Virus record (IMG/VR): IMGVR_UViG_3300020123_000428
Length of the DNA stretch: 64,000 nucleotides
Source: an uncultured virus (IMG/VR IMGVR_UViG_3300020123_000428)
Taxonomy: Duplodnaviria > Heunggongvirae > Uroviricota > Caudoviricetes
Reading direction: 5' to 3' (one strand)
Shown here: in pieces, positions 11,924 to 58,929 of the stretch
How the letters are laid out: each line of letters begins with the position of its first letter
Numbering within the stretch: the first letter of the stretch is position 1
Notes under the pieces: model-generated
Told to the model about the DNA's origin: nothing
The model's database searches: none
The model's input: the letters and a program-made list of their open reading frames with translations, nothing else
Made by a program: the position numbers and the translations under genes

Positions 11924-12000
11924 GTGGCTGGCGCCCCCAGCCAGGTGCTCCAGATGGTCTGGGGACACCGAATCAAACGTACGCGCAAAGGACTCCTTCG

Positions 12001-13832: not shown

Positions 13833-14438
13833 ATGGCGACCACCACCGCGATCTCGACCACGGATGTCCAGCAGGCGGCGGCCGAGCTGGCGCGCATGCG
13901 GCGCTCGCTGTCGGGCTGGCTCAAGTACCGGACCCTGAACGATCAGGTGCTGGCCGGGACCGCGCCGGTGCGAAAGCCCATGGCGTACGCGCAGCGCGTC
14001 GTGGCGTCGCGGCGGGACATGGCGATCGAGCAAGATCTCGCCACCAAGCTCTCGGCGCTCCTGACCGCGGTGATGCCCGGGACTCCGCTGCCGCCGCCCG
14101 ACGTCTCGTCCAACCCCCAGGCCGCGCTCCAGCTCGCGCAGATCGCGCTCCTGGGCGGGACATCGGTGCCGACGCCCACCGCGACCGGGGGCCTGTTCGC
14201 GGGGCCTCACCCGTGGCTCTGGCCGGCGCTGATCGTCGGCGGGCTGCTCCTGGTCGTGACGACCGCGATCAAGACCGCGGCGGACGTGGCCAAGGATCAG
14301 GAGCAGACCGCGTGCATCGAGGCCGGGGCGTGCACGGACTACGGGTTCTGGCTCAAGGCGGCGGGCGTGGTTACGCTCGCGTGGTTCGCCTGGGAGAAGA
14401 TGGGCGTGGGAGATATGTTCAAGAAGGGGAGGTCGTGA
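13833..14438 (+). CDS. two-TM virion protein
   Basis: two hydrophobic helices in the C-terminal half. Confidence 0.6.
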   Translation: MATTTAISTTDVQQAAAELARMRRSLSGWLKYRTLNDQVLAGTAPVRKPMAYAQRVVASRRDMAIEQDLATKLSALLTAVMPGTPLPPPDVSSNPQAALQLAQIALLGGTSVPTPTATGGLFAGPHPWLWPALIVGGLLLVVTTAIKTAADVAKDQEQTACIEAGACTDYGFWLKAAGVVTLAWFAWEKMGVGDMFKKGRS

Positions 14439-14587
14439 TCCAGGTCGCCTGACGCCGCTCGCTCTCCACGTCCCTCGCGATGCCGCCCCGTTCTCTCCTT
14501 GGGGGGCGAAATCCCGGAAAAGACGCGGGGGGCGCGAAGGGCGGGCGACTTCAGGCGACCTACCACCGACCCCTCGAGGAGGACCAC

Positions 14588-31735: not shown

Positions 31736-32557
31736 ATGACTCCAATGCCGAGGACGCAAGCATACAAGGTATTCACGCACGATCTCCGACCCCCGGTACG
31801 TGGTGGGGATCCGGTCTGGGCGGGCGGCGTACCGCACATGCTACCGCGCACGGAGGTGGACACGTCCGACGAGGAATGCGCGGCAGGCTGGAACGCGTGC
31901 GCGATGGCGGAGGACGCGCTGCGCATCGCGGGGCTGTGGCCGGATGGCCGCCCAAGCCGGCTGTTTCGCGTCGAGACCAACGAGCCGGTGTTCGTGCGCG
32001 GCGACAAGGTGCGCGCCGCCACGTGGACCATCGTCGAGGAGTCGGCGGTGGACGACGCGGTCCACGCGCTGTCCCGGAAATGGTTCAGCGCCGAGTTTGC
32101 CGACGAGATGGCGCTCGAGCAACTGACATGGCGAGCCGCGCTCACGCGACCGGCGCGTGACCCGGCGCTCGTCGAGCAACACCTCGCACGAGCGCTCGAA
32201 GCGCGCGGTCTGCCGTGGACGTTGCGGCGCTTCGACACCGCCAGGGACGCCTGGGACGCCTGGGCCGCCTGGGCCGCCAGGGCCGCCAGGGACGCCAGGG
32301 ACGCCTGGGCCGCCAGGGCCGCCAGGGACGCCAGGGACGCCTGGGACGCCTGGGACGCCTGGGCCGCCTGGGCCGCCTGGGACGCCTGGGACGCCTTGAC
32401 CCACTACTTCGCTAGCGCGAAGAAGTGGGTCAGCGGACCGCGTGCCCAGTACACCATCGGTATCCGCGACGCCTATGCCCACGGCCTTGCCATCGCTATC
32501 CCCACAGCCCACAACCAGATCGGCTGGGCTCTCGACAACCGAACGGATCACCGATGA
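31736..32557 (+). CDS. phage protein with A(W/R)(D/A) tripeptide repeats
   Basis: ORF with internal 9-bp tandem array. Confidence 0.6.
   Translation: MTPMPRTQAYKVFTHDLRPPVRGGDPVWAGGVPHMLPRTEVDTSDEECAAGWNACAMAEDALRIAGLWPDGRPSRLFRVETNEPVFVRGDKVRAATWTIVEESAVDDAVHALSRKWFSAEFADEMALEQLTWRAALTRPARDPALVEQHLARALEARGLPWTLRRFDTARDAWDAWAAWAARAARDARDAWAARAARDARDAWDAWDAWAAWAAWDAWDALTHYFASAKKWVSGPRAQYTIGIRDAYAHGLAIAIPTAHNQIGWALDNRTDHR
32240..32395 (+). repeat. 9-bp tandem repeat GCC(A/T)GGG(A/C)C, ~17 units
   Basis: directly visible. Confidence 0.9.
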
Positions 32558-32916: not shown

Positions 32917-33170
32917 GCTGTGGCGCCACCACAGACCCTGAACAGTGAAGGAGGAGATCCAATGCGCACCTAGAGCCCGTCACCGATGAGATTGAGTCGC
33001 TCCCAACTCCCACAGAGCGACGGACAAAGGCAGGCGGCACGGCGCCCTATCCGTGCAAACAAGGGTTGGCTCCGGACCCACCCACGGAGACGCGTCGGGC
33101 GCGTTATGGAGACCCGGAGAAGCAAGCGTACGATAGCCGGAGACGAGACCGAGATGAGACGGAGACATGT
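32917..33170 (+). CRISPR. degenerate hairpin-repeat mini-array
   Basis: GCTGTGG-N5-CCACAGAC 32917-32936; GCTCCG-N10-CGGAGAC 33069-33091; further GGAGAC half-repeats. Confidence 0.4.
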
Positions 33171-33649
33171 CACAGACAAGGGTTCACGAGATGCGCTTTC
33201 CACTGGCAAGAACACAGGCCATGGCACCGAGCTGGGAGGTCCACCGGTACGGTATCCTCCACGTGGTGACCGACCTCCAGGGTCGCCTCGTGGCGGTCGC
33301 GGTGAACCAGGAGACCACGGGGCACTTTCTCGTGTCCCACGTCGCCCAGGACACCCGGCGGTTCTTCGTGGCGTGGTCCGGCCCGCTGCCCCGGCCGGGT
33401 GACTACCTGATGGTGCCCCGGCGGGCGAAGTACGCCTACGAGATCGTGGGTGAGCCCGTGGTGCGCGGTCCGGGCGATGTGGTGGTCGACGTCCGGCAGG
33501 TCCCGCTCCCGCTTCCTGCGCACATCCGGCCGACGATCCACCGCTGGGCGTGGCACCACCGGGTCGGACGGTTCACCGGAAACGCGGTGGGGCGTGCTCG
33601 CGCGCCTGAGCAGCGAGACACGCTGTCAATCTCCTCTGGCGAGACGTGA
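33167..33649 (+). CDS. hypothetical protein
   Basis: GC3-rich core; start uncertain; 3' end overlaps hairpin repeats. Confidence 0.45.
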   Translation: MSQTRVHEMRFPLARTQAMAPSWEVHRYGILHVVTDLQGRLVAVAVNQETTGHFLVSHVAQDTRRFFVAWSGPLPRPGDYLMVPRRAKYAYEIVGEPVVRGPGDVVVDVRQVPLPLPAHIRPTIHRWAWHHRVGRFTGNAVGRARAPEQRDTLSISSGET

Positions 33650-33685
33650 TCAGGAGTGGTCGGAACGGCCCGCGGGACGCGGGAC
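33596..33685 (+). CRISPR. degenerate hairpin-repeat mini-array
   Basis: GCTCGC...GCGAGAC 33596-33619; half repeat 33639-33645; GCCCGC-N5-GCGGGAC 33668-33685; spacers 19 and 22 nt. Confidence 0.5.
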
Positions 33686-37980: not shown

Positions 37981-38660
37981 GCGACCACAAGTACGAGGCG
38001 CTCGGCGATGGCGACCTGACGCCCGAGCAGCTCGACGGCATGGAGATGTGGGATCGCAGCGACATGCTCAGCGCGCGCCACCGCTTCGTCGGCGCGGTGC
38101 TGGTGCGCCGCGCTGTGGCCGAGATCCGTCGCCACCGCGCCGCCCAGTCCACCAGCGCGGAGCGGGTGCGGAGCGCGGTGAGGGATGCAATCGACAGCGA
38201 GGTTTGCATCGACAACGATCAGGTGTCGGCAATCGCTGACCGCGTCGCGTCGCTGCTGGCAGCCTCGTCGTCGGACACCGCCTGCGGTGCCGGTGCCGAC
38301 CGCCACCGCGCCGCAGCGCCTCAAGAGCAAGTCCCGGACGAGACCATCAATCGCTTCCTTGATCCCGGCTGGGAGCGCATCGGGCGGATCGACAAAGCGG
38401 AGCGCCGCTCGCTCTGGATTCGTGAGTCGCCAGACGTCATCGAGCTCTGCGCCGGGCGCGAGGGAGACGACGCGTATGTGCGGATCACGCCGGAGAATCC
38501 GCAATGGCGCGACCTGTCCAGCGTGTTGGGCTGCGCGCGGTTCGCGGCCGAATACGAGGACGACGACGGGCGCACGCTGGAGCGCGAGGCCACCGCTCAG
38601 CGCGTGGTGGTTCCGACGAAGCGGCGGAAAGCCGGATCTCGCCCGTCACGCGAGCCCTGA
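37977..38660 (+). CDS. hypothetical protein
   Basis: ATGA coupling. Confidence 0.5.
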   Translation: MSDHKYEALGDGDLTPEQLDGMEMWDRSDMLSARHRFVGAVLVRRAVAEIRRHRAAQSTSAERVRSAVRDAIDSEVCIDNDQVSAIADRVASLLAASSSDTACGAGADRHRAAAPQEQVPDETINRFLDPGWERIGRIDKAERRSLWIRESPDVIELCAGREGDDAYVRITPENPQWRDLSSVLGCARFAAEYEDDDGRTLEREATAQRVVVPTKRRKAGSRPSREP

Positions 38661-38711
38661 TGTGGATGGATGGCTACCCGGGCGGCGGATACAATGCCAG
38701 TGGCAAGTGGG

Positions 38712-39070
38712 GCTCGCCCCCGGGCGAGACACGATGACAAGGCCTTCACCTCCAAAGGAGAGCCGCATGCTGACCCGACATGTCGACCGCCCTCGCCTCC
38801 GCCCCTGCATCGCCTGCATCCTCGTCGCGCTGCTCTGCACGGCCGTCGCGGGTGCGATGTGTGCGTCGATCGACTACGTAGCGCGGATGGCGGTGACCGA
38901 CTATGGTCAGTCGCTGGGGACCATCAACACGTGCACGCTGCCGGTGGTCGACAAGGAATAGCTCCGGATCCGGAGACCGTCGCGCGCCCCGAGCGATCGC
39001 GGACAGCAGGCAACGGAGACAACTGCACGAACGACTCAGGGGCTGGCTCGGTGCCCACGCAAACCGACGA
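38712..39070 (+). CRISPR. dispersed hairpin repeats
   Basis: GCTCGCCCCCGGGCGAGAC 38712-38730; GCTCCGGATCCGGAGAC 38961-38977; half repeat CGGAGAC 39014-39020. Confidence 0.45.
38734..38961 (+). CDS. small membrane protein
   Basis: hydrophobic segment; start may be 38767. Confidence 0.35.
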   Translation: MTRPSPPKESRMLTRHVDRPRLRPCIACILVALLCTAVAGAMCASIDYVARMAVTDYGQSLGTINTCTLPVVDKE

Positions 39071-39097
39071 CCGAATCATGAACCGAAGGAGATCGAG

Positions 39098-41002
39098 ATG
39101 GGTAAGAAGACCGAACGTATCGCCGAGCTCGAGGAGACACTCGCATCCTCCCGGATGCTGATCTTGAGCATCGCGCAGGATCTCAACATCGCCGCGCTGC
39201 TGCCGCATGACTGGCGTCAGCACCCGTTCCAGGTGGCGCGGCTGTTTACTCGGGCGATCGGGATCCGGCCAGCGCCGGGCCCCGTCGCTCCGACGAGCTC
39301 GGCGGACGCCGAGACCGAAGCCGATCCTGTGTCGCGCTCGGCGCCGGCCGAGACGGGTACGACTAGACCGCGCTCGGCGTTCCCCGAGACGCCTGAGCTC
39401 CCGTCGTTCGACGCCATGGTCGACGACCAGGTGGCGAAGATCGAGCGAGCCAAGGCGCCGGTCGGCGCGAACGCCGTGGTCATCTCCGACCCAGGCGCCG
39501 AAGTACCGCTGGAGATGATGCATACGCTGCGCAACGTCATCGATGCGGTCGCCCAGGAGCTCGGCATCGAGCACGAAGGGCAGGCCCCGTTCGACGTGCT
39601 GTACGCCTGCTACAACGAGATCCGGCGGATAAAGAACCCCGACGGTACGATCGATGCCGACACCGGAGATGAGGCGCTGTCCAAGGGGGATTCCCTCGCC
39701 GAGGCGGTGGCGCACGGCCAGCGCACCGAGAACACGCTGCGGGAGCAGCTCGAGGCGTCGCGCACCCTGGTGAACCGGATCGCCGGCGCGCTGCAGATCA
39801 GCACGTGGTCACCGGATGGCGCAGAACTGCTTGAGCGCGTCCAGGCGTGGTCGACGGCACGCACGATCCTCCGGCGGTGGCACCGCTCGATCACGATCGA
39901 GGTCTCCGCCGATAGCAACGTGCGGGTCCCGGCGAGGCACGTACGGATCAGCCTGGCCGAGTTGATCGATCGGATGGATGGGCCCGGCTCGGCGGACCGA
40001 GACTTCAGGACGATGAAGACCGAGACCACCACAGCAACGTCCGCGACGAGCTCGGCGCCGGCGGAGACGGCAGCCCAAACAGCGACGACGTCCACGGACA
40101 AGGCGTGCCAGGTCTGCGCGCGTTTGGAGGCGCACCCGGACCACCGGGATCGCGGGATGACCAACTATCACCAGTTCGTGTCGAGCTCGGCGCCGGCCGA
40201 GACTGTTGCAGCGCCCGAGACAACCACAGCGGCAGCATCGCCCAGCGTCCTGACGGCGTGCCGGGTGTGCGGCATGCCCGAGGGGTTCTTCGATCACCAT
40301 GGGCTGGGGCCGATCGCCCACCCGTTCGTCCCCGGCGGCCAGTTCGCACCGGTGACCACGACGCGCTCGGCGCCGGCCGAGACGGTTGACACTCCGTCGG
40401 CGGCTCCAGGGATGCCGGTCGGCCTGCTCCTCGATGAGGAGAAGATCCAGCTTCTGCAGTGGCTGTCCGACCACTCCACGATGATCGGGGGGGCCAGCGG
40501 GCCGCGCGTCGTGCTTGACGACGTGATCCGGGCAGCCAAGATCGCGCTCGCCAGCGCCAAGCACCCGGACGACCCCGAGGAGCGGATGAAGCGGATCCGC
40601 GAGCGCATGAGCCGCCTGAAGCACGGACCGAAGGGCACCGGGCAACCTGGCTCGTGCGAGCCCGACTGCCTGAAGTGCGAGCTCGACCGCGAACTGAAAG
40701 CGCTGCAACTGGGACGCGCGGCGCCGATCCAGTGCATTCGCTTCACCGTGAGCCTCATCCGCGAGGCCGAACTCCCCGGCCAGTGGGTGTCCATCTTCCA
40801 TGAGCTCAACCTCAAGTCGGGCGGCGTGACGCCGCAACGCGCCCTCCTGGCAGGGGCTGCCGCCGTGCGGATGCTGGTGGACCACCGTATGACCCAGGAC
40901 AAGATGTTGGCCCACGAGGTGTTCGCGGCGCTGAAGGCCCAGGGCGGGTTCCGGGGCTTGTCGGACCGGATGATCCTGGCCGACGACAAGGAGCAGGGCT
41001 GA
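39098..41002 (+). CDS. large mosaic protein with SAPAET-type repeats
   Basis: AAGGAG RBS; TGATG-coupled to the Cas12m-like gene; CxxC...H motifs. Confidence 0.65.
   Translation: MGKKTERIAELEETLASSRMLILSIAQDLNIAALLPHDWRQHPFQVARLFTRAIGIRPAPGPVAPTSSADAETEADPVSRSAPAETGTTRPRSAFPETPELPSFDAMVDDQVAKIERAKAPVGANAVVISDPGAEVPLEMMHTLRNVIDAVAQELGIEHEGQAPFDVLYACYNEIRRIKNPDGTIDADTGDEALSKGDSLAEAVAHGQRTENTLREQLEASRTLVNRIAGALQISTWSPDGAELLERVQAWSTARTILRRWHRSITIEVSADSNVRVPARHVRISLAELIDRMDGPGSADRDFRTMKTETTTATSATSSAPAETAAQTATTSTDKACQVCARLEAHPDHRDRGMTNYHQFVSSSAPAETVAAPETTTAAASPSVLTACRVCGMPEGFFDHHGLGPIAHPFVPGGQFAPVTTTRSAPAETVDTPSAAPGMPVGLLLDEEKIQLLQWLSDHSTMIGGASGPRVVLDDVIRAAKIALASAKHPDDPEERMKRIRERMSRLKHGPKGTGQPGSCEPDCLKCELDRELKALQLGRAAPIQCIRFTVSLIREAELPGQWVSIFHELNLKSGGVTPQRALLAGAAAVRMLVDHRMTQDKMLAHEVFAALKAQGGFRGLSDRMILADDKEQG
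39297..39390 (+). CRISPR. intragenic three-repeat mini-array
   Basis: 19-nt GCTCGG-N6-CCGAGAC at 39297, 39336, 39372; spacers 20 and 17 nt. Confidence 0.55.
39987..40383 (+). CRISPR. intragenic hairpin repeats
   Basis: repeats at 39987-40003, 40050-40068, 40185-40203, 40365-40383; half repeats at 40020 and 40215. Confidence 0.5.
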
Positions 41003-42927
41003 TGTCGGTCCGCGTCTACGAGTACGGTCTGCGCGCGCCCACCTTCAACGCCGATCTGGTGGACGAGCAGATCTTCAAGGCCCACCGGTACCGCAACCTC
41101 CTGACCGAGATCGAGCAAGCGCGGCGCGTGGCCGTGCGGCAGATCATGAGCGCGCACCCCGACATGGTCCCGCTCGATGAGGAACTCCGGGTCCTGAACG
41201 AGCAGATCGAGGCCGCGCGGCAGGTCATCATGAGCGCTCGCAAGGCGACCCGGTCCCGCTCGGAGACCGCCGAGCAGCGCGCCCAGGTCCGCGAGCTCAC
41301 CGCCAAGGCCAAGGGGTTGCGGGAGCAGATCAAGGGCATCCGCAAGGCGGTGGCGGAGGACACCGCGATCCGCGAGGCGCTCGATCGCGCGGACGAGGAG
41401 TCGGAGGAGAAGATCCGCCAAGCCCGCGCGGTGTGTGGCGTGTACTGGGGGACCTACCTCCTGCAGGAGGCGGCGGCGCGGCAGGCTCGCCAGGAGCGCA
41501 TGCCGCCCAAGTTCCAGCGCTACCGCGGCGAGGGCCGGGTGTCGGTGCAGCTCCAGAAGGGCCTCGAGCTGGCGGACCTCTGGGGGACCGACACCCAGAT
41601 CCGCATCGAGCCGGTGGCCGAGGCCGCCCATGATCCGCTCACCCGCCGCGGCGATCGCCGGCGGCTCGCCCGCACCAACGTCATGATCCGGGTCGGCTCG
41701 GACAAGGGCAAGCCGATCTGGGCCACGTGGCCGATGATCTACCATCGCCCGCTGCCCAAGGGCGCGGTCCTGAAGGTCGCCACGGTCAGCCGACGTCGGC
41801 GCAACTGCTCGACCTGGGACTGGCGCCTCCACGTCACCGTGGACACCAGCGCGTGCGAGGCGCGCCCGGTGCCGGCAGGCGGCGTGGTCGCCCTGAACCT
41901 GGGCTTCTGCATGCGTCCCGGTGGCGGCGTCCGTGCCGGCTACATGGTCGGCAGTGATGGCGAGGAGCGGGAGATCTTGGTCAACAAGTCCGACGCCTAC
42001 CGCGGTCGGGACCTCTCCGTGGAGGAGCAAGCCCGGCTGGGCGAGTGGATCCCCAACGGCTTCGCCAAGGCGGAGAGCATCCAGTCGATCCGCGACAAGA
42101 ACCTCGACCGGTTGCGCGCCGCCCTCCTGGCGTGGCGCGGCCGCGCCGAGCTCGACATCGGGGCGATCACCGAGATGATCCAGGAGTTCCGGCGGGGCCC
42201 CCGCGACAACCCCCGCACCTGGAACTGGGGGGACCCGCCCCCGCCGGTGATCGCGCCCGAGATCCCGGAGTGGCTCATGACGACGACGCAGGCCATGCAC
42301 GCCTGGCGATCCCCCGACCGCTTCCGGTCCCTGTACCGCGCCTGGGGCCGCCAGCGCTTCGAGGGCGACGGGGTGGGCTACGAGTGCCTGGGTGCGTGGG
42401 TCGAGCGGGACGAGCACCTGGAGCACTACGAGGCCGGTCTGCGGCGCTCCGCACTCCTGGACCGCCGCGAGTCCTACCGCATCCTGGCCGCCCAGATGGC
42501 CCGCACCTACGCCACCCTGGTCATCGACGACACCGATCTGCGCGCCTTCCAGCGCAGCCCCTCCCCCGAGAGTGGGGATGTCGAGTTCAACGCCGTGAAG
42601 CGGAACCAGCGCCTCGCCGCCGGCAGCGAGCTACGAGGCGTCCTCATGAACGCCTTCGGGCCCGGCCGGACGGTCAAGCTCTCGGCCAAGGATGTCACCC
42701 GCCGCTGCTACCACTGCGGCACCATCAACCAGTGGGAGCGATCCACCGCCGACCGCCTCCACACCTGCAGCGAGTGCAAGGTCCAGTGGGACCAGGACGC
42801 CAACGCCTGCCGGAACCTCCTGCGAGAGCACGAGCACACCAAGGACGCACCCGCAGCGCCGGCCCCGGACAAGAAGCCCAGCCGCTCTGAGCGCCTCCTG
42901 GAGGCCAAGCGCCGGCGGGCCGCGTGA
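41002..42927 (+). CDS. cas12m: Cas12m-like (type V-M) / TnpB-superfamily RNA-guided DNA-binding protein with non-canonical RuvC
   Basis: 641 aa; long N-terminal coiled coil; YWGTY, RYRGEGRVSVQLQ, YHRPLP, VALNLGF (RuvC-I, N for D), WRSPDRF..L..AW, LVIDDTDL (RuvC-II, D for E), CYHC/CSEC Zn finger, WDQDANA (RuvC-III); blocks match my recollection of MmCas12m. Confidence 0.8.
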   Translation: MSVRVYEYGLRAPTFNADLVDEQIFKAHRYRNLLTEIEQARRVAVRQIMSAHPDMVPLDEELRVLNEQIEAARQVIMSARKATRSRSETAEQRAQVRELTAKAKGLREQIKGIRKAVAEDTAIREALDRADEESEEKIRQARAVCGVYWGTYLLQEAAARQARQERMPPKFQRYRGEGRVSVQLQKGLELADLWGTDTQIRIEPVAEAAHDPLTRRGDRRRLARTNVMIRVGSDKGKPIWATWPMIYHRPLPKGAVLKVATVSRRRRNCSTWDWRLHVTVDTSACEARPVPAGGVVALNLGFCMRPGGGVRAGYMVGSDGEEREILVNKSDAYRGRDLSVEEQARLGEWIPNGFAKAESIQSIRDKNLDRLRAALLAWRGRAELDIGAITEMIQEFRRGPRDNPRTWNWGDPPPPVIAPEIPEWLMTTTQAMHAWRSPDRFRSLYRAWGRQRFEGDGVGYECLGAWVERDEHLEHYEAGLRRSALLDRRESYRILAAQMARTYATLVIDDTDLRAFQRSPSPESGDVEFNAVKRNQRLAAGSELRGVLMNAFGPGRTVKLSAKDVTRRCYHCGTINQWERSTADRLHTCSECKVQWDQDANACRNLLREHEHTKDAPAAPAPDKKPSRSERLLEAKRRRAA

Positions 42928-43319
42928 CGCCGCGCGAGCGATGGGATGCGGCGGTGGCGCTCCAGCACCAGACGGTAGCGCAGATCGCCAGACTTCCGCT
43001 GGACGAGGCCGGCGACAGTTCGTGCACGGATCTGGTCAACCGCGCCACCTACGAGCTGATGGAGGCGTACCGGGAGTTGAGGTACGAATACGAGTCGCAC
43101 GCTTGGCGTGGGTCAGAACCACATCCGTTGTACGACTTGCTCATGCCAGAGTGGTACGCGGCGTACAATCTGCACCGTGAGGCGATGTTCCAGCGGGAAC
43201 GCGTGGGCACGCTCTACCGAGCCACTCTGGCTATCGATGAGCAGTGCCTCGCAATGGCGCGCGTGTATTCGGCGATCCCGTCGCACCTGAAGGTGGACTC
43301 GACCGGCGTCGAGGCATGA
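42924..43319 (+). CDS. hypothetical protein
   Basis: GTGA-coupled to the cas12m-like gene. Confidence 0.5.
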   Translation: MTPRERWDAAVALQHQTVAQIARLPLDEAGDSSCTDLVNRATYELMEAYRELRYEYESHAWRGSEPHPLYDLLMPEWYAAYNLHREAMFQRERVGTLYRATLAIDEQCLAMARVYSAIPSHLKVDSTGVEA

Positions 43320-43366
43320 TGAACTCGGACAACATTCCGAGGCCGGCTCGATGTGCTCTGGGAATG

Positions 43367-43506
43367 GCTCGTCGCCGACGAGACCAGCTGTCGTCCCTGG
43401 TTCCGCTCGGGGATGCCCGAGACGAGTGGGAAGTTGTGGTCAGGATCCGCTCGGGGATCGCCGAGGACAGGTCACAGCCGAGACGCGTTCATCAACTGCC
43501 CGAGAC
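43367..43506 (+). CRISPR. degenerate mini-array downstream of cas12m-like gene
   Basis: hairpins 43367-43384, 43405-43423, 43449-43468; half repeats CCGAGAC at 43478 and 43500; spacers 20 and 25 nt. Confidence 0.6.
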
Positions 43507-43531
43507 CCGTGCTCTCAGTCCCAAAGAGGTT

Positions 43532-43903
43532 ATGATGAATCCCCGCGATCAAGAGTTGTTCGACGGCCGCCCGAAGATCACCAAGCCGTGCCCTCATTGT
43601 TCCGGGCATGGCCGGGTCACAGTCGGCTATGCGCTCATCCACTTCGAGCGTGCGTCGATGCCTGAGCCACTGGACAGGATCCCGCCCGACGCGATCTGCG
43701 CCCTGGTCGTCGGCTCCTCCGGCATCTACGAGTGCTGCAAGGAGGCGGTCGAGATCGCGGCTCGAGCGCAACGTCCCGTTGCCTTCGAGTTCTGCAGTCA
43801 GATCGTCATCGCCAGAGCAGGGGATGATCCGGTCCGGCTCGCACGCGAGTGGTGGATGATCGAGTACAAGGAGACACCAGAGGCCAGCGCCGCGCGACGA
43901 TGA
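43532..43903 (+). CDS. hypothetical protein (CPHCSGHG)
   Basis: GAGG RBS; flanked by mini-arrays. Confidence 0.5.
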   Translation: MMNPRDQELFDGRPKITKPCPHCSGHGRVTVGYALIHFERASMPEPLDRIPPDAICALVVGSSGIYECCKEAVEIAARAQRPVAFEFCSQIVIARAGDDPVRLAREWWMIEYKETPEASAARR

Positions 43904-43911
43904 CACAAGGT

Positions 43912-44030
43912 GGTCCAGCTCGGTGGGTTCGACCGAGACGCGCTCTCGTCAACCATCGGGTTCCGCTCGGGGAATCCCGAGACGCCAGAGCAAGGGATGT
44001 CCGGTCCAGCCCAGTGGCAGAACCTGGGAC
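43912..44030 (+). CRISPR. three-repeat mini-array
   Basis: GGTYCM + hairpin + AC at 43912-43939, 43959-43983, 44003-44030; two 19-nt spacers. Confidence 0.65.
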
Positions 44031-44109
44031 AGTTGTGCTGCCTTGCCAGTGGAAAGTTCACTTGACACCCGACGTCTGCTTCGCACAGGCTGTCGGGTAA
44101 GGAGATCCC

Positions 44110-44514
44110 ATGCTCACCGCCGAACAACTCCATGACCTGCACCGCCGCGCTGATGCGGTGACCCTGCCCAGTGCCGGGCCGTTCTGTGCTCGGACCGCGG
44201 CTCGACTGCTCTCGGGGACCCACTTCCTGACCAGCGCGTGGGGCCCGCCAGCCATGCAGGCCGCGTGTGCGCGTCTCGCTCAGGGAGAGATCACCCAGAC
44301 CGACGAGTTGCCCATCAGCATCCTGTCGGCGGCGGTCCGCGGGCTCCTCCTGGTGTTCTCGGTGGAGCACGTCCGCGCCGCGCTGGCGTTCTGGGCCAGC
44401 GAGAACGATCCCGCCGTCTGGCGCGCGGTCACCGAGGATGGATCGGCATGGCTCGACGTGACCCGTCGAGACGGTGGTGGCGATGCGCAGCGGCTAGCTC
44501 GGCAGAACGGCTGA
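44110..44514 (+). CDS. hypothetical protein
   Basis: AAGGAG RBS; 3' end overlaps hairpin repeats. Confidence 0.5.
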   Translation: MLTAEQLHDLHRRADAVTLPSAGPFCARTAARLLSGTHFLTSAWGPPAMQAACARLAQGEITQTDELPISILSAAVRGLLLVFSVEHVRAALAFWASENDPAVWRAVTEDGSAWLDVTRRDGGGDAQRLARQNG

Positions 44515-44517
44515 GAC
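44451..44517 (+). CRISPR. two-repeat mini-array
   Basis: GCTCGACG-N5-CGTCGAGAC 44451-44472; 24-nt spacer; GCTCGGC-N6-GCTGAGAC 44497-44517. Confidence 0.5.
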
Positions 44518-44571
44518 GCGTCTGAGAACGACTCGCGATCTCTTGCGAGGCATGTCCGCAGCTTAGCTGCA

Positions 44572-44934
44572 TCAGATGTGGTACCGAATGTAGATCTCGA
44601 GCGAGGGAGGTCCCCCGTCCATGGACGGCGTGGCGATCTCGATGAGGAAGTTGGCGTTCGTGGTGCCCTGCTTGTTGATGGCGATGGGCCCCAGCGGGCT
44701 ACCGAGCTGGGAGGCGAAGCACGCCTCGACGGCCACGACATCCTGCAGTCCCCGGATGTGGCCCTGATAGTTGTAGGGCTGCGGCGCGAAGGTCTCCGGC
44801 AGCACCAGATCGGGCGTGGCCTGGCTGCCGAACAGGCCGATCGATGCCGAGGAGTTCGCCGCGATCGCGGTCCCCGTGATGCGGAGCATGTTGTCGGCGA
44901 TCTGCGTGACGGTCGGGGTACCCACGAACGGCAT
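44572..44934 (-). CDS. beta-rich protein, paralogue 1 (possibly structural)
   Basis: clear similarity to 45091-45450 (QI.D...RITG...PD.VLP.TF.PQ.Y.Y...LEIY.RYH). Confidence 0.65.
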   Translation of the reverse strand: MPFVGTPTVTQIADNMLRITGTAIAANSSASIGLFGSQATPDLVLPETFAPQPYNYQGHIRGLQDVVAVEACFASQLGSPLGPIAINKQGTTNANFLIEIATPSMDGGPPSLEIYIRYHI

Positions 44935-45090
44935 GGAGGTCTCTCCCTGAATTGGAGGGTGACCCTTGCCGGCGGCGGTTGTGCGCACGCGCGCCGCGTT
45001 AGCGGCCTCGAGCACCGGGGAAGCGATGTCGGTGTGGTGCCTCCCGGGCGGTCATGCCCGACGTCTCACTGGCCATTTAGGCCAATGCGA

Positions 45091-45450
45091 CTACTCGTGG
45101 TAGCGGACGTAGATCTCGAGCGCCGGCGTCGCGATGGTGAAGCCGTTGCTCAGGGTCGCCCGGAAGTCGGCATCGGTGGTGCCGGTCTTGGCGACGCCGA
45201 CCTGCTCGAAGTCCGCCACGACCGCAGCGGGGTTGGCGGTCACCTGGACGGCGTCGGCCAGGTGGACCGTGTTCGCCCCGTAGGTGTAGTTCTGGGGGTT
45301 GAACGTCGCCGGGAGCACGACATCGGGCGTCGCGCCGCTGTGGCCGGTGAGCGCGATCGTGCCGCTGGCACCCGCCGCCAGCGAGAGTCCGGTGATGCGC
45401 ACGAGACGGTCGGAGATCTGCAGGATGGTCGCGGTGCCGGTGAATGCCAT
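45091..45450 (-). CDS. beta-rich protein, paralogue 2
   Basis: similar to 44572-44934. Confidence 0.65.
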   Translation of the reverse strand: MAFTGTATILQISDRLVRITGLSLAAGASGTIALTGHSGATPDVVLPATFNPQNYTYGANTVHLADAVQVTANPAAVVADFEQVGVAKTGTTDADFRATLSNGFTIATPALEIYVRYHE

Positions 45451-45499
45451 GGGGGAGACGGTATCACCGCTCACCTTGCAGGTTCAATACCTACCTGAT

Positions 45500-45594
45500 G
45501 TCTCGGGTGGTGGTTAGTTCCGTTGGCGTCTCGGAGCACACGACGCCGTCGTCTCGGTTCCGTCCCATCGGCCGTAGTCTCGGCGTCCCCGAGC
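45500..45594 (-). CRISPR. one full hairpin followed by three CCGAGAC half-repeats
   Basis: GTCTCGG on + strand at 45500, 45528, 45551, 45577; spacers 16-21 nt. Confidence 0.55.
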
Positions 45595-45766
45595 GGGTCA
45601 CGTGCTACTGTAGCACGGTCGACGAGCACCCTGGGGCTATGCACAAGAAACTCACCTGTCTCTGCAACCGGCAATCGCACGTCGGCCGAGTGACCCAGGT
45701 GGATGTCGCCTGCGCCTGAAACGGATGCTGGGGGGCTCGTCGACCGTCTGACCAGGAGCGGAAACC

Positions 45767-45940
45767 ATGAAGCGCAAGCTGATCCTCAAGTCCCAGACCC
45801 TGCGCGTGCTCTCGTCGCGTGATCTCGCCACCGCGGTCGCTGGCGAGGCCGCCATCAGCGCGGCATGGTGCCAGACCCAGCGCAATTGTCCGCCGCCGGC
45901 CAGCGATGGCTTCAGCTGCGGCGGCAACACGCACGACTGA
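45767..45940 (+). CDS. RiPP/lanthipeptide-precursor-like peptide
   Basis: AGGAG RBS; MKRKLILKSQTLRVLSSRDLATAVAG leader; Cys/Ser/Thr core; 57 aa, below ORF-track cutoff. Confidence 0.55.
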   Translation: MKRKLILKSQTLRVLSSRDLATAVAGEAAISAAWCQTQRNCPPPASDGFSCGGNTHD

Positions 45941-45960
45941 TCCAGGATCACGTCGATGTC

Positions 45961-46011
45961 GTCTCCGGGTTCGGCCTCGGAGCGCGGTCTGTCGTCTCGG
46001 ACGCGCCGAGC
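45961..46011 (-). CRISPR. two hairpin repeats
   Basis: 45961-45983 and 45994-46011. Confidence 0.4.
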
Positions 46012-46183
46012 TCGCCCGCTGAACCTCTATGGGCCTCGGCGCCGCCGAGTTGGTCCACGCAGACATAGCACATGCGGACGTTCGCCACCTCGCGCCAGCG
46101 ACGGTGTGGCTTGGCTCGATACCCGGCGTCCCGGCGCCGCCGGCCGCAGCGCGGGCATCGCCGGGTCTTGTGGCCACGTCGTT

Positions 46184-46735
46184 TCAGGGTTGCTCTCGCT
46201 TCGCGTGCGCGAGGTCGGCCTCGGAGGGTCCGCCTCCCAGGTCCCCGGTCAGGTCGGACAGGTCCTGATCGCCCAGGGCGGTCTCCGGCATCGGCGCGCC
46301 GTCCATCAGCGTGGCGACCTTGAGCGGCGATGGCGGCGGCGCCGGCGGGGCCGCTGGCGGGGCGCCCAGCCGGACCAGCACCCCCTTGGCCGCCGTGCGA
46401 TCTTTGGGCACCGGCACGGTGCGGGGCTCGGGCGCCCGCACGGTGCGGTCCTTGTACACCATCCGCGGTGGCGGCGCCGGGACCGGGCGCCGAGCCGGCG
46501 CCGGCGCAGGTGTCTGGACGTTGTTGCGGGCGACCGCCTGGACCACGGCGCCGACATCGACCGAGGCCGGCACCGCAGTCAGGTGGCCGTTGACCAGCAG
46601 ATCGTGATCCGGGGGGATCTTGGTCACCACGCCCCGCACGGGGACCGTGTACGGCGTGGCGTTGGCGAGCTCGAACGATGTCCCCGGGCTCTCGGCCGCG
46701 GGCCTCTCTTCGGTCGGGGGCTGACTCATGATCAC
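46184..46735 (-). CDS. Pro-rich hypothetical protein
   Basis: GAGG RBS. Confidence 0.5.
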   Translation of the reverse strand: MIMSQPPTEERPAAESPGTSFELANATPYTVPVRGVVTKIPPDHDLLVNGHLTAVPASVDVGAVVQAVARNNVQTPAPAPARRPVPAPPPRMVYKDRTVRAPEPRTVPVPKDRTAAKGVLVRLGAPPAAPPAPPPSPLKVATLMDGAPMPETALGDQDLSDLTGDLGGGPSEADLAHAKREQP

Positions 46736-46751
46736 CTCTGGCCGGAGGGTA

Positions 46752-47147
46752 TCACGTGTGGACGCGCAGGCGGTCGCCGACGATGCGAGACGTGCTGGGC
46801 GGCAACTCGTCCAGGTCCCCCGCCACCCAGCGGTCCACCAGCGCCCGGAACTCCGAGGCCCTCTTGAGCTCCACGGGCGGCAGGTGCGCCGCGTCCACCC
46901 GCGCCACCGCGTCCCCGGGCTGGCGCTCGAAGAACGCGATCCGCACCAGCGGGTCCCGGCGCCCGGTCGCGCACGGCACGCTGATCCAGGTCTTCGCCGC
47001 GCTGAAGATGTCGAACTCGACCACCATCACCACATGGTCCGACACCTGCCACTCCCGGGCGCTGTCGTCCCGGGCGGACAAGAGCGCCGAGAACCGCTCG
47101 CACACCTGTTGGTATCGCATCTGCCCGGAACGTAGCATTGTGGTCAT
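46752..47147 (-). CDS. hypothetical protein
   Basis: ORF in minus arm. Confidence 0.45.
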   Translation of the reverse strand: MTTMLRSGQMRYQQVCERFSALLSARDDSAREWQVSDHVVMVVEFDIFSAAKTWISVPCATGRRDPLVRIAFFERQPGDAVARVDAAHLPPVELKRASEFRALVDRWVAGDLDELPPSTSRIVGDRLRVHT

Positions 47148-47237
47148 GCGCCTCGGTATCTGAAATGAACCGAGTCTCACCGTTCGATACCCTTGTCACC
47201 AGACGACGACGGATGCTGCCATCGCCTGCAACCGCTC

Positions 47238-47406
47238 GTCTCGGTTCACCCGAGCCGGTTCTCAACCAATACCGGCATCGATAGCGTCTCGGTTCAGCCG
47301 AGCCGATCTCGACAAGAGTCCCGGCGATCCGGCGATCCGGGCCAGTCTCAACCCAGCGCGCTTGTCTCGGACGCAATCCCGAGCCCATCTCGGAAAACGC
47401 CGAGCG
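47238..47406 (-). CRISPR. four-to-five-repeat mini-array
   Basis: hairpins 47238-47256, 47286-47304, 47318-47343, 47364-47385 and degenerate 47387-47406; the four main units are each preceded by GAGA. Confidence 0.6.
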
Positions 47407-47408
47407 CG

Positions 47409-47780
47409 TCACATCGCTTCGGAGATGCCCCGGCCCTTGCCGAAGATCACCTTCCAGATCGCGCCGGCCAGCGGAATGGAGAGCGTGGCCGCGATCTGGA
47501 GCCACTTCTGGAGCTCGGCAGTCTTGAGCGTCTGCACTCCCGCCTGGAGCTGCGCCATCACGTTGGCTTGCCACTGGGCGGTGGCCGGATCGGTCAGGGT
47601 CGGCTGCGAGAGCGTGCTGGCTGACGCCGGATCGTCGCCCAGCGAGCCCAGCGCCGGCCCCATCTGGCGGTGCACCCGCGCCCGCGACAACGGGGTCGAG
47701 ACGCCGCCGATGGCCGTGTACCAGCGGGGGCCGTGAGCGGTGTCGCCGGAGAGCGCGCGATGCTTGCGGTGGTAGGACAT
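47409..47780 (-). CDS. membrane-anchored virion-type protein
   Basis: basic N-terminus, ALGSLGD, C-terminal TM. Confidence 0.6.
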   Translation of the reverse strand: MSYHRKHRALSGDTAHGPRWYTAIGGVSTPLSRARVHRQMGPALGSLGDDPASASTLSQPTLTDPATAQWQANVMAQLQAGVQTLKTAELQKWLQIAATLSIPLAGAIWKVIFGKGRGISEAM

Positions 47781-47792
47781 GGGGCCCCTTGT

Positions 47793-48407
47793 TCAGTTGG
47801 TGGCGAACACGCCCAGGTTGGCGGCGCCGATGGCGTCGTCGATCGCCAGGTCCGACAGATCGCCCTGCGCTGGCGGCGATGCCTGCGGACCTGCGTTGGT
47901 CACCTTGCCGCCGCTGGACACGCCGTAGCGCCCGGCGTCGAAGGCGTCGTTGTACGTGAACTCGTTCGGGTCCTCGTCCGTCGGTTGCAGCATGGCCGCC
48001 TGGCTCTGGGCGGCGAGCTGGTTCTGGGCGGTCGTGGTCGCGGCCGCGATCTCCGGCGTCGCATCCGCGATCACCCACCCCAGGGTCGGTAGGTAGAGTT
48101 GGATGATGGACTGGATCGCCGCGATCGCGGAGCCGACCACCACGGGCGTGTGGTACTTCTCGATCCACTTCACTCGGTGGGCCAGGAACCACGCCGCCAG
48201 GAACGAGCCGACCGAGGTCACCGCGCCCGCGTGCTTCGCCCAGCCGGGCGAGAGCTTGGCGACCTGGGTGGCGGCGATCCGGGTGGCGAACCGCGTGGCC
48301 GCGAACCCCGCGAACCCCGGCACGATGTACTCGACCAGGTCCGTGAAGAGGGGCGGGTTGCGCCGCATGGGCTTCACGTACCGACGATGCATTGTGGAAC
48401 GCGCCAT
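47793..48407 (-). CDS. membrane virion-type protein
   Basis: MRRNP then hydrophobic helices and acidic tail; architecture like C-half of 10448-11887. Confidence 0.6.
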   Translation of the reverse strand: MARSTMHRRYVKPMRRNPPLFTDLVEYIVPGFAGFAATRFATRIAATQVAKLSPGWAKHAGAVTSVGSFLAAWFLAHRVKWIEKYHTPVVVGSAIAAIQSIIQLYLPTLGWVIADATPEIAAATTTAQNQLAAQSQAAMLQPTDEDPNEFTYNDAFDAGRYGVSSGGKVTNAGPQASPPAQGDLSDLAIDDAIGAANLGVFATN

Positions 48408-48507
48408 GTCCTGTGTTGCTCCTGCGCGGCCCCGGGTACGCGCCGTAGGCCACAGGGTAGCCCGGGATCGGCCGGTGGTTCAAGCCCCTTCCTCGGCAGC
48501 GCGTGGT

Positions 48508-48662
48508 GTCCCGGCCTCCCCGGGCAGGTCCCCTCGTAGTTCATGAGCCGTCTCGGTCGCCCGAGCGTCGCTAGTTCCCCGTCCCCGCTTGGGGGGCTCA
48601 TCTTGAGCGCCGCCAGCACACGTCTCGCAGGCAGGGCACACCCGTCTCGCCGCTTCGCGAGC
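48508..48662 (-). CRISPR. mini-array with covarying hairpins
   Basis: hairpins 48508-48525, 48550-48566, 48581-48597, 48644-48662; half repeat 48622-48627; spacers 14-24 nt. Confidence 0.6.
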
Positions 48663-48671
48663 AGATACCTA

Positions 48672-49109
48672 CTAACTCCCGGTCGGCGCGGTGACCCCCC
48701 CGTGGACGGCGCAGCCCAGCACCGTCTCCAGGAACCGCCGCAGCACCGGCGTCGCGTCGTGGGCGTGGTGGACGATCTCGCGTAGCGAGGTCCGAGCCAG
48801 CGCCGTGAGCGTCATCAGCAGCTTCAGGTATGACCCGCCCAGCTTGGGCTCGATGTGGTGCCACTGGTTCGAGATCATGATCTCCATCACCTGGTCCGGC
48901 TCGACACCGTAGGTCGCCAGGATCCCGGCCACATGCCCCAGGATCAGGAACACGGTCGAGCACTCACCGGTGTGCAGCGAGAACTCGCGGAGTCCCAGAC
49001 CCACCAGCTCGCGCTGCAGGAGGGACGGGCCGGCCGAGGTCGCCGCCTGCATCAGGCGATCGACGAAGTGGTTCGCCTGCTGCTGGGTCTCGTCGTGCGG
49101 GGTCGTCAT
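48672..49109 (-). CDS. hypothetical protein
   Basis: GGAGG RBS. Confidence 0.55.
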   Translation of the reverse strand: MTTPHDETQQQANHFVDRLMQAATSAGPSLLQRELVGLGLREFSLHTGECSTVFLILGHVAGILATYGVEPDQVMEIMISNQWHHIEPKLGGSYLKLLMTLTALARTSLREIVHHAHDATPVLRRFLETVLGCAVHGGVTAPTGS

Positions 49110-49402
49110 GATCGGGGCCTCCTTGCCTTGGGCGTCTTGGTCTTGCCAGTGGCCGCGGTGACCGGCGGGGTCACCACGGCCTGGAGCTCGGGGCCGGGCT
49201 CGATCACGCGCTCGGGGCGCGACGGCTTGCCGCTGAACCCGCCATCATCGAACCAGCATCGGACGCAGAGGTACACCGGCACGCCCGATCCCGGCCGCGG
49301 CTCCATCTCGAGCATGATGGTGCCGTGCGCCGCCGGGCGCTCGCAGTCCTCGCAAGCGATCCCGATCGAGAGCGGGACCTCGATGTCCGAGGTCGTGGCC
49401 AT
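49106..49402 (-). CDS. Zn-finger protein
   Basis: CEDC...CVRC. Confidence 0.5.
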   Translation of the reverse strand: MATTSDIEVPLSIGIACEDCERPAAHGTIMLEMEPRPGSGVPVYLCVRCWFDDGGFSGKPSRPERVIEPGPELQAVVTPPVTAATGKTKTPKARRPRS

Positions 49403-49413
49403 GGTCGGTCCGG

Positions 49414-49773
49414 TCAGCGCGAGGCCGGGGTATCGTACTCGGCGCTGGCGGTCGCACCGCTCTGATCGATCGCCGCCGGCGCCGTGTTGGCGGCCAGCAC
49501 CGACACCAGGGTTCCGATCGTCACCCCCAGCGCCGCGATGGCCACGTTGACCGCGCTGGCGGTCGCGGTCTTGCCGTCGATGAAGACGGTGCGGGATACG
49601 CTGCCATCCGTGGTCGGCAGCATGCCCACGGTGCACGCCCCGCTGGGGCAACTCACGTTGATGGGTGTGGTCACGTCGATCACGTTGTTCGCCGGGTTCG
49701 CGGCGTCGAAGTGGGTGTAGAGGACCAGAGGTCCGTAGTTGATGGACTTTCCGACATGGACAGAAGACGTCAT
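49414..49773 (-). CDS. hypothetical protein
   Basis: GC3-rich ORF. Confidence 0.5.
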   Translation of the reverse strand: MTSSVHVGKSINYGPLVLYTHFDAANPANNVIDVTTPINVSCPSGACTVGMLPTTDGSVSRTVFIDGKTATASAVNVAIAALGVTIGTLVSVLAANTAPAAIDQSGATASAEYDTPASR

Positions 49774-49812
49774 GCGGACGGTGTAGCACCGGGGTCTGAC
49801 AGGCTGGACGCA

Positions 49813-50145
49813 TCAGATCGGGGGTCCAGCCGGCGGAGATCCCGGGCGTGAATCGGAAGGCGAGCGGCTCACGCTTCCGCACCGCGCGTCGTAAAGTCTG
49901 GCTAGGTCGCCGATGCCCCGGTAGAAGCGACGAGAACCGCGGCAGATCGCTCGGGAGATCATCACGACGATTACGATAGGCCACCCGACTGTCGCCAACA
50001 CGTCGATAACAAAACGTGCGTCTGGTGTCAGCGCCAGCAGACCGAGACCACGGCGCTGTACAAGGAGCAAGGTGACGCACGTGCCTAACATCCCGTACAT
50101 CAGCAGGGAGAGGAGTATTACGACTGCGAGATCAAACGTGCTCAT
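49813..50145 (-). CDS. two-TM membrane protein
   Basis: hydrophobic helices; atypical composition. Confidence 0.4.
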   Translation of the reverse strand: MSTFDLAVVILLSLLMYGMLGTCVTLLLVQRRGLGLLALTPDARFVIDVLATVGWPIVIVVMISRAICRGSRRFYRGIGDLARLYDARCGSVSRSPSDSRPGSPPAGPPI

Positions 50146-58875: not shown

Positions 58876-58917
58876 GTCTCGTGGATCGCCAGGCAGCAAC
58901 GTCTCGTTCCACCGAGC
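58876..58917 (-). CRISPR. hairpin repeat + 19-nt spacer + half repeat
   Basis: GCTCG-N6-CGAGAC 58901-58917; CGAGAC 58876-58881. Confidence 0.45.
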
Positions 58918-58929
58918 CGGCCTTGCGAC

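Follow-up and report, generated by a model that had tools for sequence, protein, structure and literature searches.

A hairpin with trailing half-repeats in a phage gene leader: a probable degenerate mini-array of type V-M origin

How does a complete hairpin come to stand ahead of a phage gene with three copies of its own 3' arm trailing behind it, and what might such an arrangement serve? The question is raised by positions 45500-45594 of a 64,000-nucleotide stretch of DNA (the window, taken at its full length) from an uncultured virus of the Caudoviricetes, IMG/VR record IMGVR_UViG_3300020123_000428. On the minus strand this element, which we call the train, has the letters given for it in a preliminary description of the locus, namely one full hairpin and three CCGAGAC units, with separations of 19, 16 and 21 nt. 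The reading that we favour, with a probability of roughly 0.6, is that the train is a degenerate mini-array derived from the repeat of type V-M CRISPR systems, located in the leader of a phage gene (gene X) and belonging to the phage's own nuclease-dead Cas12m, encoded at 41002-42927. The features concerned are the following.

45577..45594, minus strand: full hairpin GCTCGGGGACGCCGAGAC, GCTCGG-ggacg-CCGAGAC, with the minimal type V-M repeat core (a G, a 5-bp CTC/GAG stem and A-C)
45558..45576, minus strand: 19-nt stretch in guide position, directly 3' of the full hairpin
45551..45557, minus strand: half-repeat 1, CCGAGAC, the 3' arm only
45535..45550, minus strand: 16-nt stretch from half-repeat 1 to half-repeat 2
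45528..45534, minus strand: half-repeat 2, CCGAGAC
45507..45527, minus strand: 21-nt stretch from half-repeat 2 to half-repeat 3
45500..45506, minus strand: half-repeat 3, CCGAGAC, 49 nt upstream of the ATG of gene X
45091..45450, minus strand: gene X, specific to the phage clade, whose leader holds the train
41002..42927, plus strand: Cas12m homologue of 641 aa, 2.6 kb from the train

The train, the type V-M repeat and Cas12m

Counted over the whole window, CCGAGAC is not out of the ordinary, with 32 copies against 23.0 +/- 4.7 expected and at least 32 in 7 of 100 shuffles. What is unusual is its clustering: four copies on one strand within 100 nt or less were reached in none of 200 first-order Markov simulations of the window, the largest cluster holding one copy in 134 of them, two in 65 and three in a single one. 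The hairpin form CTCGG-N5-CCGAG occurs five times against 0.41 expected, with no count as high in 100 shuffles. Along the train the unit-to-unit spacing is 28, 23 and 26 nt, and the letters that precede half-repeat 1, GGGACGGAA, are similar to the loop of the full hairpin (GGGGACG).

Many cas12m loci carry an ordinary array directly after the gene, with 36-nt repeats at a period of about 72, each ending in CTC...GAGAC. Fifteen such repeats, all beside cas12m, were taken from nine virus records (eight IMG/VR loci and the array of G003, a 78,782-bp relative), and their only invariant columns are C14 T15 C16 G32 A33 G34 A35 C36. The 6-bp helix of these repeats is paired in 100% of cells and includes three covarying pairs, with a covariation score of 0.614 against 0.219 that was equalled in none of 500 shuffles, and a pseudoknot helix (9-11/20-22) is paired in 93% of cells. 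The train hairpin, G-CTCGG-ggacg-CCGAG-AC, reproduces the 3' core of this architecture, i.e. the CTC...GAG helix and the A-C that follows it.

Membership of the hairpin family of the window required a G and CTC, then two or more additional pairs, a loop and the matching arm, closed by GAG and AC. The window holds 29 such hairpins against 6 in its reversed sequence; G001, a complete virus record of 86,334 bp with synteny to the window (nucleotide identity 65-80%), holds 72 against 3 in its reversed control, and G003 holds 47 against 9. Only three were found in G002, a virus retrieved by DNA pattern alone and without cas12m. The fixed letters are limited to the G, CTC, GAG and AC, while the inner stem positions covary (CTCGG/CCGAG, CTCGC/GCGAG, CTCCG/CGGAG, CTCAG/CTGAG and longer ones) and the loops span 2-14 nt, a combination that argues for a folded single strand and not for a double-stranded site. 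On the same loop lengths a double-stranded operator was rejected, by reasoning only, as the identity of the hairpin. Concerning placement, 27 of the 29 window hairpins agree in orientation with the surrounding genes, 17 lie in the 17.5% of the window called intergenic, and 28 lie above 30 kb, outside a block whose collinearity with G001 leads us to regard it as structural. The bare GAGAC pentamer behaves in the same manner, since same-direction intergenic DNA holds 44 co-oriented against 7 anti-oriented copies.

A covariance model built from the ordinary V-M repeats of other viruses alone (model R1) has its best window match at 58901-58929 (19.4 bits, E 0.0043) and gives 38 window matches at E up to 10, several other members of the hairpin family being weak among them (E 0.2-9). 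A scan of the whole window against Rfam returned no family. Cas12m and hairpin units co-occur across divergent viruses, some at only 40-51% GC, and the relatives grade from ordinary arrays of 36-nt repeats to scattered minimal hairpins; G003, besides its hairpins, also has an ordinary array, with unique spacers. Judged by their letters, the window units are repeat-derived but shortened, most of them without the 5' third of the repeat and without the pseudoknot stem. With high confidence we take the hairpin to be a minimal V-M repeat derivative belonging to the phage's own Cas12m. The preliminary description had framed the locus as CRISPR-like but named no effector; the V-M core architecture and a Cas12m gene at such a short distance support that framing well.

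The assignment of the effector is based on matches of the protein encoded at 41002-42927 to the solved structures PDB 23vw_A (E 3.8e-58) and Cas12m2, 8hhl (E 2e-20); its match to PF07282 (Cas12f1-like TNB domain) falls just under the Pfam cut-off, with 25.3 against 26.3 bits. In the alignment to Cas12m structures the RuvC positions read N-D-D, with N in ALNLG (AIDLG in the structures), D in IDD (LEE) and D in the conserved WDQD, and N-D-D is one of the non-cutting Cas12m triads described in PMC11013384. His248-Arg249 align with His269-Arg270 of Cas12m2, the WED pair that reads C(-1) of the CRISPR RNA (crRNA) and stacks on its G:A pair; R249 never varies in 29 homologues, and at least 90% of them keep H248. 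According to the description of Cas12m2 in PMC10442227, its crRNA scaffold contains a non-canonical G(-23):A(-2) pair, the C(-22)-C(-17) segment is base-paired to G(-8)-G(-3), and C(-1) is the final repeat letter ahead of the guide; His269 and Arg270 recognise the G:A pair and C(-1) in a base-specific manner, and the heteroduplex measures 17 bp.

The clade of this effector is large, with 127 homologues at E <= 1e-5 among the 8,000 candidates scored. An alignment-based search succeeded in retrieving 46 virus loci from IMG/VR, where a single-protein locus search for cas12m in viral contigs had returned nothing; metagenomes yielded 295 stretches, 80 of them retained. Several of the loci (L073-L202, from IMG/VR and metagenomes) lie on contigs of 78-86 kb with terminal repeats. 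As to a host signal, the best relatives are 36-38% identical and lie on contigs of metagenome-assembled genomes (Polyangiaceae, Pirellulales and others), none exceeding 38% in 185,579 species genomes. Neither a cas1 nor a cas2 family came up when the called open reading frames (ORFs) of the window were scanned against Pfam and PHROGs, which fits a Cas1-independent origin of the units.

By analogy with the family we infer that the hairpin would be bound by Cas12m and used as a handle. The leader would be transcribed together with gene X, Cas12m would hold on to the hairpin by its G:A pair and its last C, and the following 17-19 nt or so would act as guide, DNA being bound without cutting. Comparison of the units suggests that the three CCGAGAC copies would be local copies of the hairpin's own 3' arm, which may have arisen by repeat-mediated duplication and deletion inside the train and not by an acquisition of the Cas1 type. 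Halves alone cannot form the helix that Cas12m holds, so they are most likely not independent guide heads.

Layout, polarity and origin of the half-repeats

The same succession, full hairpin and then half, had been reported at five other sites of the window, and all five do have it, with caveats at three of them. At 43449-43506 the supposedly full hairpin ends in GAGGAC instead of GAGAC, at 58876-58917 the stem has four pairs only, and at 39987-40026 the units stand within a coding frame. The units in question, together with their surroundings, are listed here.

43368..43506, plus strand: units 3' of cas12m, comprising two full hairpins, one near-full hairpin (ending in GAGGAC) and two half-repeats
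58901..58929, minus strand: GTCGCAAGGCCGGCTCGGTGGAACGAGAC, the window unit closest to an ordinary V-M repeat, then half-repeat CGAGAC at 58876-58881
48622..48661, minus strand: full hairpin of the CTCGC/GCGAG variant, then half-repeat GCGAGAC of the same variant
33597..33645, plus strand: full hairpin of the CTCGC/GCGAG variant, then half-repeat GCGAGAC
39298..40383, plus strand: six full hairpins and further halves, in frame within ORF 39098-41002, encoding S-A-P-A-E-T-like linkers

ORF 39098-41002 (plus strand) stands directly upstream of cas12m, and in its product the hairpin-encoded S-A-P-A-E-T-like linkers separate Cys-x2-Cys motifs. Its GC content at third codon positions is 0.80-0.94 along the whole length, and homologues precede cas12m in L074, L075, L123, L125, L127 and L147; these two observations indicate that the repeat-derived hairpins lie here within a real coding gene.

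The further statement that a half generally matches the stem variant of the hairpin upstream of it was borne out quantitatively. Out of 20 orphan GAGAC copies at most 100 nt downstream of a full hairpin, 15 match its variant, against a null mean of 4.99 and with no such value in 5000 resamplings, and minority variants are included (33597-33645, 48622-48661, 33070-33166 and 38962-39020). In the relatives the matching is weaker, with 5 of 11 in G001 (p 0.07) and 4 of 11 in G003 (p 0.01). In the window a hairpin's own 7-nt 3' arm recurs as an exact orphan 12 times downstream of it and never upstream (8 after and 0 before when only orphans outside any hairpin with a loop of at most 30 nt are counted), whereas orphan copies of the 5' arm are unbiased, three on each side. 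This polarity is absent in the relatives, with 8 copies downstream against 7 upstream in G001 and 5 against 5 in G003. The full hairpin leads in 10 of 10 window clusters that mix full hairpins of at least 5 pairs with halves, and an eleventh mixed cluster, at 58905, opens with a 4-pair hairpin. The half-repeats of the window are real, polar and variant-matched.

Comparable layouts (F, full unit; h, half) are seen in other viruses of the clade. L125, the closest long relative, has 51% Cas12m identity and the same gene order; directly after its cas12m, at 11960-12260 (plus strand), in the position of an ordinary array, it reads F h F h h F h, its full repeats retaining the pseudoknot stem (AAGCCACGCTCGGGTGGCTATCCGACCCGAGAC), and F h is found also ahead of several of its minus-strand genes. 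The leader of the gene X orthologue reads F h h h in L123, with the halves 12, 1 and 1 nt apart, F h in L074 and F only in L075, the latter two sharing the same downstream 20 nt, and it holds six full hairpins and one half in G001. The ordinary arrays of more distant viruses have hardly any orphans, except for a degenerate last repeat about 70 nt past the last full one. Upstream of the gene X orthologue in L074 (about 14400-14560, minus strand) and L075 (about 8310-8450, minus strand), which are 40%-identity relatives, four to five CTGGACGMC direct repeats follow the hairpin unit, and a GTCTCGG stretch of L074 could pair with either flanking CCGAGAC to give alternative hairpins.

Regarding the origin of the halves, the region upstream of cas12m was aligned between G001 and five relatives with flanking genes of 83-98% identity. 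The GAGAC columns are invariant there, whole units are gained and lost by insertions and deletions (indels), and the spacers within one array are near-copies of one another (ACACATTCCCGTCA-like). One member, L130, shows CGAGAC alone, by a plain deletion, at the place of a full unit in the others. The window itself contains a tandem GAGAC micro-repeat, GGAGACGAGACCGAGATGAGACGGAGAC, at 33140-33166 (plus strand), 3' of a CTCCG/CGGAG hairpin and with copies 0-6 nt apart, in which the 3' arm seems to expand by slippage. Taken together, the indels, the near-copy spacers, the half of L130, the micro-repeats and the loop-like GGGACGGAA suggest that units multiply and shrink by local duplication and deletion and not by acquisition of foreign DNA, a process that would also account for the variant matching. 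The comparison thus supports an origin of the halves by local duplication and deletion.

It should be noted that the stretches between the three halves of the train are unrelated, yet each half retains 7 of 7 letters. Local duplication and deletion alone would account neither for this nor for the invariable lead of a full hairpin. Either the mechanism would be polar, the 3' arm being copied together with what follows it, or selection may keep a 3' arm only where it stands downstream of a 5' arm. The preliminary description had offered a route that duplicates only the 3' arm, and regardless of Cas1; polarity and the traces of duplication fit such a putative route.

Guides, targets and competing readings

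Four 19-nt stretches following full hairpins were used in an exact-pattern search of IMG/VR. Three of them have exact matches in unrelated viruses, and the fourth, as well as one control 19-mer, has none. The spacer of the train, 45558-45576 (minus strand), matches over 19 nt, or 22 nt counting the repeat-end GAC, at 3345-3363 (minus strand) of L233. The matching virus, represented by two contigs (G007 and G008, 62% GC), is unrelated and without hairpin enrichment, the match falls within an 878-aa ORF between the tape-measure and tail-protein genes, and it could be a protospacer or chance; comparison of the other window guides with this virus gave background level. The second spacer matches one family of viruses of about 50% GC (8 contigs) and the third a single contig, both over exactly 19 nt. 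A rough chance rate of 0.15-0.3 per 19-mer, scaled from 67 hits of a 16-base pattern, makes three matches out of four suggestive at best, and they are not counted as support.

Several findings weigh against the reading of the train as a degenerate V-M mini-array serving Cas12m. The train hairpin is absent from the 38 matches of model R1 (E up to 10), and only two of the three positions of its pseudoknot stem are pairable. Since most window units are likewise without this upstream stem (it is kept at 43399-43423, 43443-43468, 43959-43983 and 58901-58929), binding of the minimal hairpins by Cas12m is presumed from the family. Tandem Repeats Finder detected no period of 55-80 in the window, i.e. 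no ordinary array. Gaps between units that are far too short for guides occur in G001 (7-12 nt) as in the L123 leader. When the 24 nt after 148 hairpins (window, G001 and G003) were sought as protospacers in about 1.3 Mb of related sequence, no signal above control emerged: hits of 15 nt or longer numbered 59, and the upstream control stretches, whose count is inflated by neighbouring hairpins, gave 120. The 5' flanks of the three spacer matches (GAC, AGG and ACG) have no common protospacer adjacent motif (PAM). Finally, random loss of 5' arms predicts neither the 12 against 0 polarity nor the intact letters of all three halves, so that regarding the halves as a by-product may be wrong.

The strongest competitor is the proposal of the preliminary description that the single 5' arm (G-CUCGG) pairs alternatively with the four CCGAG-AC arms, giving four Cas12m handles and guides with the earlier spacers looped out, which we regard as possible if doubtful. 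It would explain why halves stand only downstream in the window, why three quarters of them fit the preceding 5' arm, CTCGC/GCGAG and CTCCG/CGGAG minorities included, and the succession found directly after cas12m in L125; the loops of full units vary so widely that the loop is not tightly read, and the separations within the train are near the 17-bp heteroduplex of Cas12m2. The same variant matching is, in turn, predicted by local duplication, the polarity is lost in G001 and G003, and as a general rule the proposal conflicts with units that come and go by indels among the relatives of G001, one half being the product of a plain deletion. The gaps of the L123 leader and of the micro-repeat at 33140-33166 leave no room for guides, and some of the halves, at least, therefore do not head guides.

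Folding bears on this proposal from both sides. With ViennaRNA and forced pairings in a 121-nt context of the train, 0.96 of the ensemble has the 5' arm joined to the fourth 3' arm, owing to self-folding of the stretch in between. At three further loci the proximal hairpin prevails, its share being 0.52 at 43440-43520, 0.996 at 48610-48670 and 0.97 at 33590-33660. Distal-arm pairing is feasible in such a model, whose fractions are context-dependent and computed without co-transcriptional folding or protein. Co-transcriptional folding would favour the nearest arm, and in Cas12m2 the loop contacts the protein, as described in PMC10442227.

A wider form of the idea extends to the whole clade of soil phages of about 80-86 kb. 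A nuclease-dead V-M system would serve there as a genome-wide device with handles in early-gene leaders, single 5' arms would serve several 3' arms, either loading alternative guides or titrating and timing Cas12m on the phage's own messages and DNA, and the halves would be working parts of a Cas1-free way to build guide sets. We put this forward tentatively and consider it rather unlikely.

Also unlikely, in our estimate, is that the units are cis-acting sites for binding or processing by Cas12m on the phage's own messages, where a cut upstream of the hairpin would leave Cas12m on the new 5' end to stabilise, time or repress early genes, possibly with binding of the source DNA, the extra GAGAC copies tuning the effect. 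The gene-wise orientation of the hairpins, the near-confinement of these hairpins to the non-structural part of the window, and the bias of GAGAC in same-direction intergenic DNA all suit such sites, as do units in frame within a coding gene and units directly before the cas12m start, with near-identical short spacers, in G001 and its relatives. Cas12m is described as processing pre-crRNA upstream of the scaffold and as silencing transcription without cutting (PMC11013384, PMC10442227), and the sole spacer match that exceeds 19 nt is flanked by GAC, the repeat-end letters. Against this, the Cas12m PAMs described in PMC11013384 are T- or C-rich, so that self-binding beside GAC would be unexpected, the last unit stands at inconstant distances from the start codon (28, 37, 49 and more than 100 nt), and binding of single-stranded GAGAC would have to be assumed.

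Very improbable, to our judgement, is that the units are RNA anti-CRISPRs, i.e. solitary repeat units by which Cas12m from a host or a competing element would be sequestered, with the halves as debris. PMC10651486 describes viral units of this solitary kind that act as repeat mimics and block their cognate Cas proteins, type V-A included, and many copies without convincing targets would suit a decoy. The solitary units of that account are, however, as a rule without cas genes, whereas here every unit-rich genome has its own cas12m, and the array of G003 joins unique spacers to the same repeat.

That the hairpins are unrelated to CRISPR (terminators, repetitive extragenic palindromic (REP)-like elements or operator sites) and resemble V-M repeats by coincidence is hardly credible: they are short, GC-rich and intergenic in a genome of 68% GC, an adjacent 17-bp palindrome suggests that other protein-binding sites occur there, and minimum-free-energy folding is no better than for shuffles (z -1.11 for the train and +0.88 for 43380-43540, a measure uninformative for short protein-held hairpins), but the units have the same eight invariant letters as ordinary V-M repeats, covarying stem positions, loop lengths that a double-stranded DNA site would not tolerate and no T-run on their 3' side, and they accompany cas12m over divergent viruses, including those of lower GC. 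Two further candidates were discarded by reasoning only, namely primase sites or replication-strand signals, which are inseparable from transcription direction and leave the covarying stems unexplained, and IS200/IS605 or REP hairpins, no Y1 transposase family having appeared in the Pfam and PHROGs scans of called ORFs.

The palindrome just mentioned is the following feature. It looks like a candidate operator by its letters.

45601..45617: palindrome CGTGCTACAGTAGCACG, perfect, 17 bp, 6 nt 5' of the full hairpin, within the gap between the divergent genes

Known systems and surroundings of the train

Seen as a degenerate V-M mini-array, the train shares with the type V-M arrays of MmCas12m, GoCas12m and Cas12m2 a homologous effector, the same core and the A-C directly ahead of the guide. 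Two more likenesses are the lack of cas1 and cas2 families in the window ORF scans, as in V-M in general according to PMC10691335, and a RuvC of the inactive type, N-D-D, as described for V-M in PMC11013384. Unlike those arrays, the window is without regular 36-nt repeats; its units are 17-20 nt long, with variable stem and loop and mostly no pseudoknot stem, and they are dispersed over about 30 kb, in gene leaders and a coding frame, with irregular spacing and with trains of 3' arms only.

The nearest published case is the Cas12m of myxophage lineage MV-1 (bioRxiv 10.64898/2026.09.14.751636), which is likewise phage-borne, without adaptation genes and without a trans-activating crRNA. As described in that preprint, MV-1 differs in having one adjacent array with one consensus repeat and eight spacers and an intact D-E-D triad, as opposed to N-D-D and dispersed minimal repeats in the window. 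The preprint, of 2026, names its case the first phage Cas12m; Cas12m homologues are common in virus contigs, IMG/VR alone having given the 46 loci noted above, and V-M in prophages is already mentioned in a 2024 review (PMC11656645).

Solitary repeat units, or RNA anti-CRISPRs (Racr), and viral mini-arrays, as presented in PMC10651486 and PMC11656645, resemble the window units as single repeat-like viral hairpins outside arrays, often behind promoters. Those Racr elements are described as host-repeat mimics without a cas gene, unlike the window phage, which has a cognate effector and tens of copies. A likeness also exists to CRISPR repeat-like regulatory RNAs (crlRNA or mini-array regulators) and to standalone omega-RNAs (bioRxiv 10.1101/2023.03.03.530964, PMC10691335), being repeat-derived, outside arrays, and lending the effector to regulation or extra targets. 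The crlRNA regulators, by these accounts, number one or a few per locus and have partial complementarity to a defined promoter, unlike the window units, for which no such target was found. The term 'half DR' appears in the account of PMC10691335 only for an evolutionary intermediate of Sigma-TnpB guide RNAs and not for trains behind a full repeat. The text covered from the papers cited here contains no account of minimal V-M handles scattered over a genome, nor of 3' half-repeats in trains.

Cas12m is under development as a compact programmable DNA binder, which gives these elements a practical side. If a hairpin of 17-20 nt without pseudoknot stem should suffice, Cas12m guide RNAs could be made shorter by about half, and if one 5' arm should serve several 3' arms, this would be a new and very compact way of encoding a guide set. 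Effector handles in the phage's own early-gene leaders, if true, would amount to a CRISPR system rebuilt for the virus's own use. The natural series from ordinary arrays to scattered minimal units is relevant, moreover, to array growth and decay where Cas1 and Cas2 are lacking.

The train sits in a 292-nt gap between a weakly called plus-strand ORF of 57 aa (45767-45940) and minus-strand gene X, whose start, the ATG at 45450, is conserved in G001. Neither Pfam nor PHROGs assigned gene X to a family. It has a paralogue at 44572-44934 (minus strand), both genes being about 120 aa long and present only in this phage clade, and in G003 gene X paralogues stand on both sides of the ordinary array. 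Scans of 43200-48800 gave no sigma-70 promoter and one terminator-like site against 1.9 expected. Against cultured phages, blastn with the train returned noise only (E = 4) and megablast with 38000-50000 no match. Four soil DNA runs compared with 43300-48700 yielded short identical contigs at low depth and without variants.

Some further features of the window were recorded. A 9-nt unit, CGCCTGGGA, is repeated in 17.6 copies with 92% identity at 32239-32396 (plus strand), within ORF 31838-32557. At 20921-22387 (minus strand) long tandem repeats with periods of 129, 258 and 387 nt extend over four to five small minus-strand ORFs (21238-22563) that are mutual copies. In the presumed structural block, the 591-aa product of 17730-19505 (plus strand) matches PF00072, the receiver domain of response regulators, at a level slightly above the cut-off (E 2.2e-7), which is unusual in a phage.

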